Sequence record: MT446415.1
Source: Escherichia virus TH44
Strand: one strand, 5' to 3'
DNA: 64,000 nt
The notes below the pieces were generated by a model that was not told the origin of the DNA, searched no databases, and was given only the letters and a program-made list of their open reading frames with translations. The position numbers were made by a program, and so were the translations under genes. Position 1 is the first letter of the stretch, and each line of letters opens with the position of its first letter. This document shows, one piece after another, positions 1-57,810 of this stretch.

Positions 1-7
1 AAGAATA

Positions 8-265
8 ATGGCTGTTGGATTTGCAAAAGATGGTGCTGAACAGTTAGAGATGGAAGCGGTTGTCCAAGCCGCTATCACCCACGCTCGTAAGCAAGTTGCA
101 GTTGAAAGGGAGTCTGCTGAATTCTGTTTTGACTGCGACGAAAAAATTCCTGAAGCGCGGAGACAAGCGATTAAAGGCGTGATATATTGTGTTGGTTGTC
201 AATCAATGCATGATGAAATTTTTAAACGTGAGCCACGAAATTGTTGGCACAGGAGCATGAGATGA
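8..265 (+). CDS. TraR/DksA-type C4 zinc-finger protein (may be truncated at window edge)
   Basis: 85 aa; C-x2-C-x17-C-x2-C spacing 'CFDCDEKIPEARRQAIKGVIYCVGC' typical of TraR/DksA zinc fingers. Confidence 0.5.
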   Translation: MAVGFAKDGAEQLEMEAVVQAAITHARKQVAVERESAEFCFDCDEKIPEARRQAIKGVIYCVGCQSMHDEIFKREPRNCWHRSMR

Positions 266-356
266 TTTACTATCTTGAATCTTGGGCTTGGTTAACAATG
301 ACCGTAGGACCTGTTTTAATTGGTTTATTCTTTTCATGGTTAGCGAGGAAACTGTA

Positions 357-554
357 ATGTTATATGACCCGAGTGGTAATTCTGAAGATGGTATTATTGT
401 CCTCTTGGCAGATGTTGAAGAATCCGACGATGACATCTTTGTTAAAGATTGGGAAGAAAAAGGTGGAATCACAATCCAGCAAGAAAATGATATGATTTGT
501 CTGAATGCAGACCAAGTCGAAGAGCTTTATAGTATTTTAAAACATAACCGTTGA
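357..554 (+). CDS. hypothetical acidic protein
   Basis: ATG with upstream GAGGA; in frame with track ORF 282..554. Confidence 0.4.
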   Translation: MLYDPSGNSEDGIIVLLADVEESDDDIFVKDWEEKGGITIQQENDMICLNADQVEELYSILKHNR

Positions 555-3110: not shown

Positions 3111-3413
3111 ATGAAGAAGTATGAACTTGACATGATTGATGCATGTCTGAAATCTGCTGACCATTTTAAGTTGAAAATGCACAAGTTAAGAGGAATGATC
3201 AAAACTCCAGAAGAGAAGAAGCGATATGCTCTGAAGGAGAAATGTAAAGCTCTTATCATGATGGATAAGCTGCAAATGGTCGCCGCAGAAGCCCACAGGA
3301 CACGTAAAGCTGAGGCCCTTGGTGTTTATATGGCAGAGCAGCTTCATCGCGCCCAGCAAGCTGTTAAGAGCGTCTGGTTCAGCGGTGAAAATACTGAAAG
3401 AACTTTTAATTAA
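3111..3413 (+). CDS. hypothetical protein
   Basis: 100 aa ORF with SD. Confidence 0.5.
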   Translation: MKKYELDMIDACLKSADHFKLKMHKLRGMIKTPEEKKRYALKEKCKALIMMDKLQMVAAEAHRTRKAEALGVYMAEQLHRAQQAVKSVWFSGENTERTFN

Positions 3414-6162: not shown

Positions 6163-7152
6163 ATGACACGTAACGAATATATCCAGGCCTTTAACTCAAC
6201 TATCGACACAAAAGTAAAACCATTAATAGGTGAATCGGCTATCCTTTTAATTATCAATTACTGGTTAAATCAGATTGACTCGACGATTGTTGCATCTGGT
6301 CGCTTCAAGAAAGACATTGCAACTATTGCGAGTCGTGCTGGTAACGATGATATCAAGAAAACTTTTAAAAGTTCCCGAGTCCTGGCATACCTGGTTAATA
6401 AAGACCTTCTTAATAAGTTTGGTGTTGAATCCAGACGTGGTAAAGGTACAATTGGATATCATTGGTTTGGTGATGTTGAAAAATACTACCTTGATAAACA
6501 AGGCTATACTGTTTCTGAATTCGCACATTGCTGGGCTCGTGAATTCAGAGATAACAAAATGTCTATCATAAAATCAGCGACAAAATTGATGGATGGCGAT
6601 TATCGCACTATCTGTCATTTGGCAGAGCACATGGTCAAGGTTAAAGAGTCTGGTAAAAACCAGGTAATTATTACAGTTAATCATGAGTTCTTTACTCCAG
6701 TGGCTACTCCAGAAAATGTCAAAAAGTATTTTGATGCTGCGAGCACGCTTACTTCACAGATGCAGTGTGCCCTTAACTATATGCGCACTGTTGAAAAAAT
6801 TAAAGTAGACCCTATCACCAGTACTCGTGGTTGGAAAGGTTGGAAAATTGTGGTGACATTGCGTGAAGTTAAATGCGCAAAACAACCAACTGATGCAGAA
6901 ATTTATAAAAAGAAAAGTGAGGAAATTATGAATGCACCGCAAGAAACCACCCTTGAAGACCTGATTGATAATCTGAACAATGAGCCAGTGAAACAAAAAG
7001 CGCCTGAAATTATTGCTCTGGAAATGGCGTATAATAAAGCTCTTGCTGTTAATAAAAAGGCAACTGAAGATTATACAAAAGCCAAGCGACTTTGGGAAGA
7101 ATCAACTAATCGTCTGGATAAACTGGAACAGGCTCTGGAGCTGCTGAAATGA
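6163..7152 (+). CDS. hypothetical protein with C-terminal coiled-coil
   Basis: 329 aa; C-terminal helix ending ELLK. Confidence 0.6.
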   Translation: MTRNEYIQAFNSTIDTKVKPLIGESAILLIINYWLNQIDSTIVASGRFKKDIATIASRAGNDDIKKTFKSSRVLAYLVNKDLLNKFGVESRRGKGTIGYHWFGDVEKYYLDKQGYTVSEFAHCWAREFRDNKMSIIKSATKLMDGDYRTICHLAEHMVKVKESGKNQVIITVNHEFFTPVATPENVKKYFDAASTLTSQMQCALNYMRTVEKIKVDPITSTRGWKGWKIVVTLREVKCAKQPTDAEIYKKKSEEIMNAPQETTLEDLIDNLNNEPVKQKAPEIIALEMAYNKALAVNKKATEDYTKAKRLWEESTNRLDKLEQALELLK

Positions 7153-7463
7153 AACAACGTTTAGCTGAAGATATTGCTTCATCATCTAATACCGGTTTAT
7201 TGGAATTTATTAAAGCCGAGGATGTTGAAGCTGAATTGGTTGGTAAGATTCATGGCTGTGATGATTATAGCCAAGATATTCCCGATTGGAATGCTATTAT
7301 TAAAATTGTCGAACGTCGTGAAAAAGCTTCTAAGAACGTTCCGAACTGTCCTATGTGTGGAACTGAACAGGTCCAGTTGGTTCAATGGCGGCATAATCCG
7401 CTTCAGTATAAATGTCGCATGTGTAAACACAAATTTGAGCGAGACGAAAATGGCAAAGCGTAA
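7149..7463 (+). CDS. zinc-ribbon protein
   Basis: 104 aa; C-terminal CPMC...CRMC pair. Confidence 0.5.
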
Positions 7464-55510: not shown

Positions 55511-56119
55511 GTGAACAAGTTAAATTATATCGTTAAATGCTCCCAGAACGCGCTGCATGAGACTGATGTTAATGCTCTGGTGTTTGTATACAAAAACAAC
55601 TTCGTGAGTCCAGAGGTTGTTTTAGACCAGCAGAATACATCAATTGATAGTGTGCAGACATTGTTGAATAACAACTATGTTGAAGCTTCTGGTGATGGTT
55701 TGATGGTTACAGAAAAGGGTGTTGACCTTATTCTGGATGCAGCTGAACTTTGGGCGAATGAAAATAATCCTGACCTTCTGGAAGTGAAGAAGACAAGAAC
55801 AAAACGCGGTGTGACTGATGAAATGGAAGCGACTGCAGAATATATCAAAGAGCAATTGTTGTCTATTGGTATTGACTTTAAGAGCATTTCAGAAGACCGC
55901 AGCAATCTGATTGTGAAGTTCAAGCGTGTCAAGACATTAAAACAGATTGATGTTCGTCGTGATGGTCAGATTCGCGTACATGCGTATAATACTGAACAAA
56001 AGATAGTAAAACAGTTTACAGACGTGGGATTTAGCGTTAAAGTAGGTGGATTGAATACCTACATTGACAACGTTATGTCAACTGAAAACATTCAACATGT
56101 TATTAACATCTTAAAGTGA
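55511..56119 (+). CDS. motA: middle-transcription activator MotA
   Basis: 202 aa, GTG start; 'EASGDGLMVTEKG' resembles T4 MotA 'EKSGDGLIITGE' as recalled. Confidence 0.8.
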   Translation: MNKLNYIVKCSQNALHETDVNALVFVYKNNFVSPEVVLDQQNTSIDSVQTLLNNNYVEASGDGLMVTEKGVDLILDAAELWANENNPDLLEVKKTRTKRGVTDEMEATAEYIKEQLLSIGIDFKSISEDRSNLIVKFKRVKTLKQIDVRRDGQIRVHAYNTEQKIVKQFTDVGFSVKVGGLNTYIDNVMSTENIQHVINILK

Positions 56120-57534: not shown

Positions 57535-57810
57535 ATGACTAAATTTGAAATCGTTTCTGAAATTGTTACTGTAACTTCAATTTTGATTAAAACCGACCGG
57601 GAAGATATTACGATGAAGCGTGATGTGTTTATCGCGTTTTTGAATGAGTTGGGATTGAGGAATGAGAATGGTAATGAGTTAAACAATGTATCGTTTAACA
57701 AGTTGTTTAAAAGTTTATCTGAAGATGAAATTGAACAAATCATTGAACAATTTAACGAAGGATTCGAAGATATACACCGTTATCTTATGATGTATACCTC
57801 CGGATTCTAA
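57535..57810 (+). CDS. asiA: anti-sigma70 factor AsiA
   Basis: 91 aa; 'REI.TV.SILIK..REDI......FIAFLNE.G...E...L...SF.K....L...........FNEGFE...RYL.MYT' matches T4 AsiA as recalled. Confidence 0.9.
   Translation: MTKFEIVSEIVTVTSILIKTDREDITMKRDVFIAFLNELGLRNENGNELNNVSFNKLFKSLSEDEIEQIIEQFNEGFEDIHRYLMMYTSGF

Follow-up and report, generated by a model that had tools for sequence, protein, structure and literature searches.

A small gene for a C4 zinc-finger protein stands at the start of the 64,000-nucleotide stretch of Escherichia virus TH44 (MT446415.1) that was analysed here and that we call the window. Three questions are raised by this locus: whether the gene is complete so close to the edge, to which branch of the DksA/TraR family its product belongs, and whether this product could act on the RNA polymerase (RNAP) of the host.

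The listing of open reading frames and the sequence itself gave an ATG at position 8 and a TGA at positions 263–265, and an 85-residue product, MAVGFAKDGAEQLEMEAVVQAAITHARKQVAVERESAEFCFDCDEKIPEARRQAIKGVIYCVGCQSMHDEIFKREPRNCWHRSMR; the interval 8–265 corresponded exactly to the zinc-finger coding sequence with its stop codon (Table 1). A previous sequence-only reading had held that the frame may extend beyond the window start. The finger would then be the C-terminal part of a larger protein starting upstream; the frame might also be a chance or decaying one. Just seven bases precede the ATG, so that the window alone is insufficient to rule on the first point, and truncated remnants of the gene do exist in other phages. 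The close relatives argue against both. In phage UPEC07 (91% identical DNA) the frame is closed by a TGA four codons ahead of the ATG and no start codon intervenes, and the upstream gene, a homologue of mobD.3, ends on the ATG itself. In both UPEC07 and VR7 the coding sequence of this homologue stops on the same base. Because of the TAATG overlap and of the UPEC07 stop codon with no intervening start, the frame is complete, and the supposed extension was wrong; the upstream sequence of the close relatives rules out a larger protein of which the finger would be the end. Orthologous coding sequences with identical limits were present in UPEC07, VR7, Merlin and 121Q, the start ATGGC(T/G)GT(T/A)GGA was common to VR7, Merlin, 121Q and Roth90, and 156 of 174 family representatives (the retrieved clade proteins that have the finger) began with M-x-x-G-[FWY]. 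As an arrangement of the two genes, the overlap indicates translational coupling of the mobD.3 homologue and the zinc-finger gene. In pairwise comparisons with UPEC07, VR7 and Merlin, dN/dS was about 0.1 (0.08–0.14): purifying selection acts on an intact gene, which speaks against decay. When the 64-kb window was translated in six frames, the finger motif had a single occurrence, compared to 0.02 on average in 100 shuffled versions of the window, which rules out a chance motif. A larger protein or a chance or decaying frame is, with these observations, extremely improbable.

Table 1. Features of the zinc-finger gene and of its surroundings. Coordinates are those of the window, except in the last line, where they are those of the records named.
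Feature	Position	Strand	Description
Zinc-finger CDS	8..265	+	85 aa + TGA; DksA/TraR-superfamily, YbiI-like C4 zinc finger
TAATG junction	6..10	+	Stop codon of the mobD.3 homologue (6–8) overlaps the start codon (8–10)
M-A-V-G-F-A-K-D-G-A-E-Q, residues 1–12	8..43	+	Clade motif, presumed channel-tip segment, in place of the TraR DxxDxA
Predicted long N-terminal helix, residues 8–30	29..97	+	AlphaFold2; predicted counterpart of TraR_N (residues 2–27) in the RNAP secondary channel
C4 zinc finger	125..199	+	Regular-expression match at 125; Pfam match over residues 38–66
I47-P48-E49-A50-R51-R52	146..163	+	Equivalent to TraR I44-P45-E46-A47-R48-R49 by alignment
Predicted C-terminal helix, residues 62–71	191..220	+	AlphaFold2; aligns to TraR 59–68 (TraR_C)
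F-K-R-E-P-R-N-C-W-H-R-S-M-R, residues 72–85	221..262	+	Phage-clade tail; low model confidence
AGGAG (251–255) and ATGA overlap (262–265)	251..265	+	Ribosome-binding site and start of the next ORF inside the 3' end of the zinc-finger gene
Hairpin and GTTTACA-N17-TACTAT	L001 (UPEC07) 3285–3353; L002 ~3131; L007 ~1448		Upstream of the mobD.5-to-zinc-finger block

The sequence-only reading had described a C-x2-C-x17-C-x2-C spacing accompanied by an EARR segment of the DksA/TraR type, and both were confirmed when the sequence was read: the cysteines are C40, C43, C61 and C64, exactly at this spacing, and EARR occupies residues 49–52. The Pfam model PF01258 (zf-dskA_traR) scored 36.2 bits (E 5.8e-9), above its gathering cut-off of 24.9, and PHROG 54, “DksA-like zinc-finger protein”, was matched with E 1.6e-20. 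The closest solved structure by sequence was E. coli YbiI (2KGO; E 2.3e-9 over residues 1–69), and TraR in its RNAP complexes (5W1S and 6N57) was matched with E of about 5e-5 over residues 16–73 only. A profile comparison with TraR was made with hhalign. A query profile of 57 homologues aligned to a TraR/lambda Orf73/P2 Orf82 alignment with a probability of 99.2%, residues 16–73 corresponding without gap to TraR 13–70, and the first 15 and last 12 residues being unaligned. Together with the fold found by Foldseek (see below), these matches support membership of the DksA/TraR-type C4 finger family. A search of all six-frame ORFs of the window with the family profile (hmmsearch) matched only the zinc-finger ORF, and no second copy or paralogue was therefore found in the window. 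The only other CxxC...CxxC zinc-ribbon-like motif of the window, at about 7347–7424 on the + strand, had a spacing of 18 and was unrelated to the DksA/TraR profile; it was situated inside an NrdC.2-like ORF (about 7086–7379, by synteny with UPEC07).

The position of the protein inside the family was less simple. The first rank among the NCBIfam models was held by the YbiI equivalog (PRK11019/NF008243), with 77 bits over residues 1–71 for a cut-off of 96. TIGR02419, the phage/conjugal TraR subfamily, scored 53.3 (cut-off 59.7), PRK13715 (TraR) 31.2 (cut-off 108) and NF033459 (DksA) 13 bits (cut-off 105). Strict membership of TraR or of YbiI was rejected, as every score was under the curated cut-off. 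In the sequence comparisons the protein nevertheless resembles E. coli YbiI more than F-plasmid TraR, and it is assigned to a YbiI-like clade, for which an exhaustive profile search returned 2,792 clusters at 50% identity with E<=1e-3 and 349 with E<=1e-10. YbiI (PDB 2KGO), an E. coli C4 protein of the DksA/TraR family, was closest in both sequence and fold. The two proteins share the MAxG[W/F]AxDxA motif from Met1, a similar length (88 aa for YbiI and 85 aa here) and the same order of elements, in which one helix is followed by a C4 ribbon, a short helix and a basic, conserved tail. They are only 35% identical, the loop before the finger is one residue longer in the phage protein, and ybiI is RpoS-dependent whereas the phage gene lies behind an early-type phage promoter. 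The zinc-finger protein is a correctly identified member of a known family. Proteins 99% identical to it are already in public databases, and in the records of UPEC07, UPEC01 and P8 the orthologue is named “TraR family C-4 type zinc finger protein”, elsewhere “DksA-like zinc-finger protein”; a dksA/traR domain was noted in the T4-like phage 44RR in 2006 (PMC1524935). As it stands, the finding re-derives an annotation already present on sister-phage records, and its modestly interesting points are limited to the membership of the YbiI-like branch, the absence of DxxDxA and the conserved tail. In the UPEC07 record (L001, MW250787) other product names seemed to be propagated from T4 gene names and not from function: the small mobD.x ORFs bear the name [quoted passage not shown], the MobD.1 homologue that of “thymidine kinase” and the nrdC.x ORFs that of “thioredoxin”.

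An AlphaFold2 model built from a 57-sequence alignment had a moderate mean pLDDT of 73.7, with low confidence at both termini, and comprised a helix at residues 8–30, a zinc ribbon and a helix at residues 62–71. The three-element architecture of TraR (first a long helix, then the globular zinc domain, and a second helix at the C-terminus) was found in this model; the boundaries of the TraR elements, including TraR_N at residues 2–27, are those of PMC6970531. Foldseek against the PDB retrieved RNAP-bound TraR (5W1S_M, TM 0.67, rmsd 3.1 Å over 65 columns; also 6N57_M) and YbiI (E 1.8e-5), DksA and DksA2 being weaker. DksA (5VSW and 7KHI; NF033459) has in common with the phage protein the zinc-finger domain and the general fold class of secondary-channel binders, but its architecture of about 150 aa (151 aa in all), with a two-helix coiled coil and the residues of the ppGpp-binding site, differed from that of an 85-aa protein with a single helix.

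In the alignment of the 57 homologues, M1, A2, G4, the four cysteines, I47, P48, R51, R52, G57, Q65 and R77 were invariant, and A6, K7, D8, G9, A10, Q12, S36, E49 and D69 were at least 90% conserved. F-plasmid TraR (5W1S, 6N57; TIGR02419, PRK13715) resembles the phage protein by its finger spacing, by the I-P-E-A-R-R patch and by the three elements described above. TraR residues P45, E46, R48 and R49 are needed for RNAP binding or for the contact with Si3, and touch the beta' rim helices and beta'Si3 (PMC9239242, PMC6970531). All four are present in the phage protein, as P48, E49, R51 and R52; TraR K50 is replaced by Q53. The phage protein differs from TraR, however, by three additional residues ahead of the first cysteine, by the absence of the DxxDxA tip, and by a conserved tail of 14 residues that has no TraR counterpart.

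The window belongs to a T4-like genome of the VR7 type (genus Gaprivervirus). Its first 4 kb were 87–94% identical to phages of this genus such as MN01, DK-13, RZ, UPEC07 and VR7, and in UPEC07 and VR7 the zinc-finger gene is situated between the mobD.3 homologue and small ORFs leading to mobD.1, nrdC.11 and nrdC. Upstream of the translationally coupled gene block, UPEC07, VR7 and Merlin showed a strong terminator-like hairpin and then GTTTACA-N17-TACTAT, a pattern conserved across three genera or species of T4-like phages. This element resembles the T4 early promoters, and it is probably the early promoter of an operon running from mobD.5 to the zinc-finger gene. A MotA-box middle promoter was not found upstream in these three relatives. 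Because only the early-type promoter was present there, early transcription of the zinc-finger gene by the unmodified host RNAP is likely. The sequence-only reading had placed AsiA and MotA alongside the finger protein, and both do have relatives in the same window: tblastn with T4 query sequences detected a MotA-like ORF at 55511–56119 (+; 33% identity over 207 aa) and an AsiA-like ORF at 57535–57810 (+; 53% over 83 aa). The presence of a T4-type middle-transcription apparatus in the window is thus confirmed.

For TraR and five homologues from temperate phages the family mechanism is already established: they bind to RNAP, they act without ppGpp to inhibit the promoters of rRNA and r-proteins, and they complement a mutant that lacks dksA (PMC9239242). 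On RNAP, the TraR globular domain is located on the rim helices and the C-terminal helix on the beta lobe-Si1 (PMC6970531). The known phage-encoded members (lambda Orf73, P2 Orf82, VHML Orf8, VP882 Orf61/TraR_VP882 and Gp34 of X. bovienii) are, like the protein described here, small and in the same Pfam family. Lambda Orf73 raises the burst size (PMC9239242), and VP882 TraR stops the growth of the host by binding to RNAP and works in complex with another phage protein (bioRxiv 10.64898/2026.07.27.740977). The RNAP-binding phage homologues of TraR are expressed from early operons, surrounded by small ORFs without known function (PMC9239242; bioRxiv 10.64898/2026.07.27.740977), a setting similar to that of the zinc-finger gene. 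Those tested come from temperate phages, start with the tip motif (MxDxxDxA/I), measure 73–75 aa and have no tail, whereas the present protein belongs to a strictly lytic T4-type phage and to the YbiI-like clade.

Docking on RNAP is the hypothesis that we favour because the fold is TraR-like and the binding patch is common with TraR. It seems to us fairly probable that the phage protein binds, as TraR does, to the secondary channel of RNAP, early and in an accessory role; both the binding and its regulatory outcome are what we infer from these likenesses. In the proposed mechanism, the patch residues of the globular finger would dock on the secondary channel of the host RNAP as those of TraR do, the N-terminal helix would run down the channel towards the active site, and the C-terminal helix would lie against the beta lobe. 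Transcription initiation by the host enzyme would be altered without ppGpp early in infection, the protein being an accessory factor alongside AsiA and MotA. The suggestion that such a protein could reprogram host transcription is, in the same way, a deduction: it concerns a protein that belongs to an uncharacterised clade and does not have the DxxDxA tip required by TraR and DksA for regulation, although its RNAP-binding finger residues are conserved. Not all the C4 finger proteins of the family act like DksA (PMC9239242). YbiI is reported to rescue dksA auxotrophy, and only when it is highly expressed, the data not being shown in that paper (PMC2613031). Our literature search found no experimental work on T4-like or YbiI-type members, and no biochemical demonstration of YbiI binding to RNAP.

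The N-terminal tip was the first point of divergence from TraR. The TraR DxxDxA tip (D3, D6 and A8) is critical for regulation (PMC9239242), and D..D.A was absent from residues 1–39 of the phage protein. At Met1 the protein showed instead the YbiI-type motif M-A-x-G-[W/F]-x-x-D-x-A, as MAVGFAKDGA (the N-terminal motif and tail that characterise YbiI were derived from the family alignment of this analysis). Among the 174 finger-bearing representatives, 132 had G[FWY]xxDxA and four had DxxDxA. When the gap-free TraR register was extended to the N-terminus, A6, G9 and E11 fell at the positions of TraR D3, D6 and A8; D8 and A10 came opposite the functionally critical D-x-A only with a shift of one residue. 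The register of this segment was variable, since the phmmer and hhalign alignments stop at residue 16 and two MAFFT runs put D8 opposite different TraR residues. The distance from the aspartate to the first cysteine was 31–32 residues in the clade and 31 residues for TraR D6, and by this distance D8-x-A10 could be the equivalent of the critical D-x-A. The downstream half of the DksA tip, D74-R-A76-A-Q-E, resembles the clade consensus D8-G-A10-V/E-Q. In DksA, D74 and A76 are the critical tip pair, and the tip residues are required for regulation and not for binding (PMC4010833).

A channel binder devoid of TraR-type regulation could account for a protein in which the binding-patch residues are conserved and the tip motif is replaced. 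It would be an occupant or competitor that excludes DksA/ppGpp, GreA/GreB or the host YbiI; phage transcription would thus be insulated from the stringent or stationary-phase response, or else the longer N-terminus would act at the active site. Such a case is known in Rnk, which binds the channel and does no more than compete (PMC9239242). We consider this explanation, in its two forms taken jointly, to be unlikely. The conserved D8-x-A10, at its 31–32 residues from the cysteine, could still supply the D-x-A function, and the reported complementation of dksA auxotrophy by YbiI needs positive regulation and not mere occupancy. Moreover, the motifs of P2 Orf82 and of X. bovienii Gp34 are imperfect, and these two proteins still work, although more weakly (PMC9239242). 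If the protein binds the channel in the TraR-like manner that we favour, its effect on RNAP may still not be the same as that of TraR, because the tip is MAxGFAKDGA in place of DxxDxA and because of the extra conserved C-terminal tail.

This tail was the second point of divergence. In the alignment the phage clade had the consensus FKRxPRNCWHRSMR, whereas the bacterial members had NRRGSKDSQLR; the YbiI-type tail N-R-R-G-S-K-D-S-Q-L-R was not present in the phage protein, which has P-R-N-C-W-H-R-S-M-R in this place. An intermediate form, NRKVWHRSMR, existed in protein P0137, and it is for this reason that the phage and bacterial tails are probably homologous. Some T4-like Klebsiella phages had the bacterial tail. 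In one of them, Roth90 (PQ657830, L008), a homologue with a YbiI-type tail, GYNRRGSKDSQLR, was observed at 2001–2261. It occupied a different genomic place, directly upstream of the DNA primase gene. Both types of tail are therefore held by phages, as seen from the YbiI-type tail of Roth90 and the intermediate one of P0137. The 3' end of the gene contains the ribosome-binding site and start of the next ORF, whose coding sequence has the same place in the annotations of UPEC07 and VR7, and the conservation of the tail might have been a by-product of these embedded signals. The jumbo phage 121Q rules this out: the tail is kept there with different codons (AGA TCT versus AGG AGC) and the overlapping downstream gene is absent. 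The residues of the N-terminal motif were also the same in 121Q, with synonymous codon changes. Since 121Q uses other synonymous codons and has no overlapping gene, the N-terminal motif and the tail are constrained at the level of the protein.

The same two segments could also be the functional surfaces of a YbiI-type zinc ribbon with a target other than RNAP, such as another protein, a nucleic acid, or a metal or stress function. MAxG[FW]AxDGA and the tail are the most conserved clade-specific segments, they are unaligned with TraR and have no counterpart in it, and VP882 TraR, for its part, works in complex with another phage protein. We judge such a target quite unlikely, as the residues in common with TraR are exactly those contacting RNAP, and the fold and dimensions match those of RNAP-bound TraR. 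In addition, an iron-related neighbourhood was not seen around the bacterial homologues in the two genomes considered.

Channel binding, the favoured hypothesis, admits a bolder version in which the YbiI-like clade is a functionally distinct class of RNAP secondary-channel ligand, with a deeper tip and a tail for a second site. The MAxG[F/W]AxDGA extension would reach further into the catalytic centre than the TraR tip does, and the basic tail, also conserved, would touch a second site or a partner. We regard this version as doubtful. If it were true, the gene would encode an unrecognised factor of early host-transcription shut-off, or an anti-stringent factor, of lytic T4-type phages, beside Alt/Mod, AsiA and MotA. 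Binding to RNAP, if true, would in itself add a secondary-channel factor to the RNAP modifiers of T4-type phages, which were studied almost entirely in T4, a phage devoid of the zinc-finger gene, and would make the uncharacterised YbiI branch of the family easier to study.

Two small ORFs follow the zinc-finger gene and are translationally coupled to it. The first, at 262–357 (+), encodes a hydrophobic peptide of 32 aa, MIYYLESWAWLTMTVGPVLIGLFFSWLARKL, and has an ATGA overlap with the zinc-finger gene; the second, at 357–554 (+), encodes a very acidic product of 65 aa, MLYDPSGNSEDG..., and has a TAATG overlap with the 32-aa ORF. These ORFs persist in phage HX01 without the finger gene, and they do not adjoin the finger gene in 121Q and Merlin. 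For these reasons they are probably not obligate partners of the zinc-finger protein.

Homologues were detected by tblastn in 776 phage records, corresponding to T4-like phages of Escherichia, Citrobacter, Klebsiella, Enterobacter, Acinetobacter and Aeromonas and to jumbo phages; P2-like/phiCTX phages and VP882 were weak matches. In T4 itself no homologue was found (tblastn, E<=10, T4 46–62 kb, from mobD.3 to mobD.1), this interval having only mobD.2a and mobD.2. In the RB69-like Mosigvirus phages, such as HX01, there was only a chimeric remnant of the gene. Being absent from T4 and degenerate in Mosigvirus, the zinc-finger gene is dispensable; it is a conserved accessory gene of a recombination-prone early region. 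In HX01 (NC_018855, L005) the chimeric ORF was located at 2460–2621, where the N-terminus of the downstream “MLYD...” gene, MLYDYTGKSEDGVLELLPESAEDD, was joined to the 28 C-terminal residues of the finger protein (VIYCVGCQ...RNCWHRSMR). The same type of chimeric ORF was seen in proteins P0048, P0052, P0058 and P0063. It corresponds to phrog_25948, is devoid of the first CxxC, and is followed by the intact 32-aa ORF and the MLYD gene. By its structure the chimeric ORF looks like a recombination scar, in which the finger gene was destroyed while the ribosome-binding site and the start of the next gene were kept.
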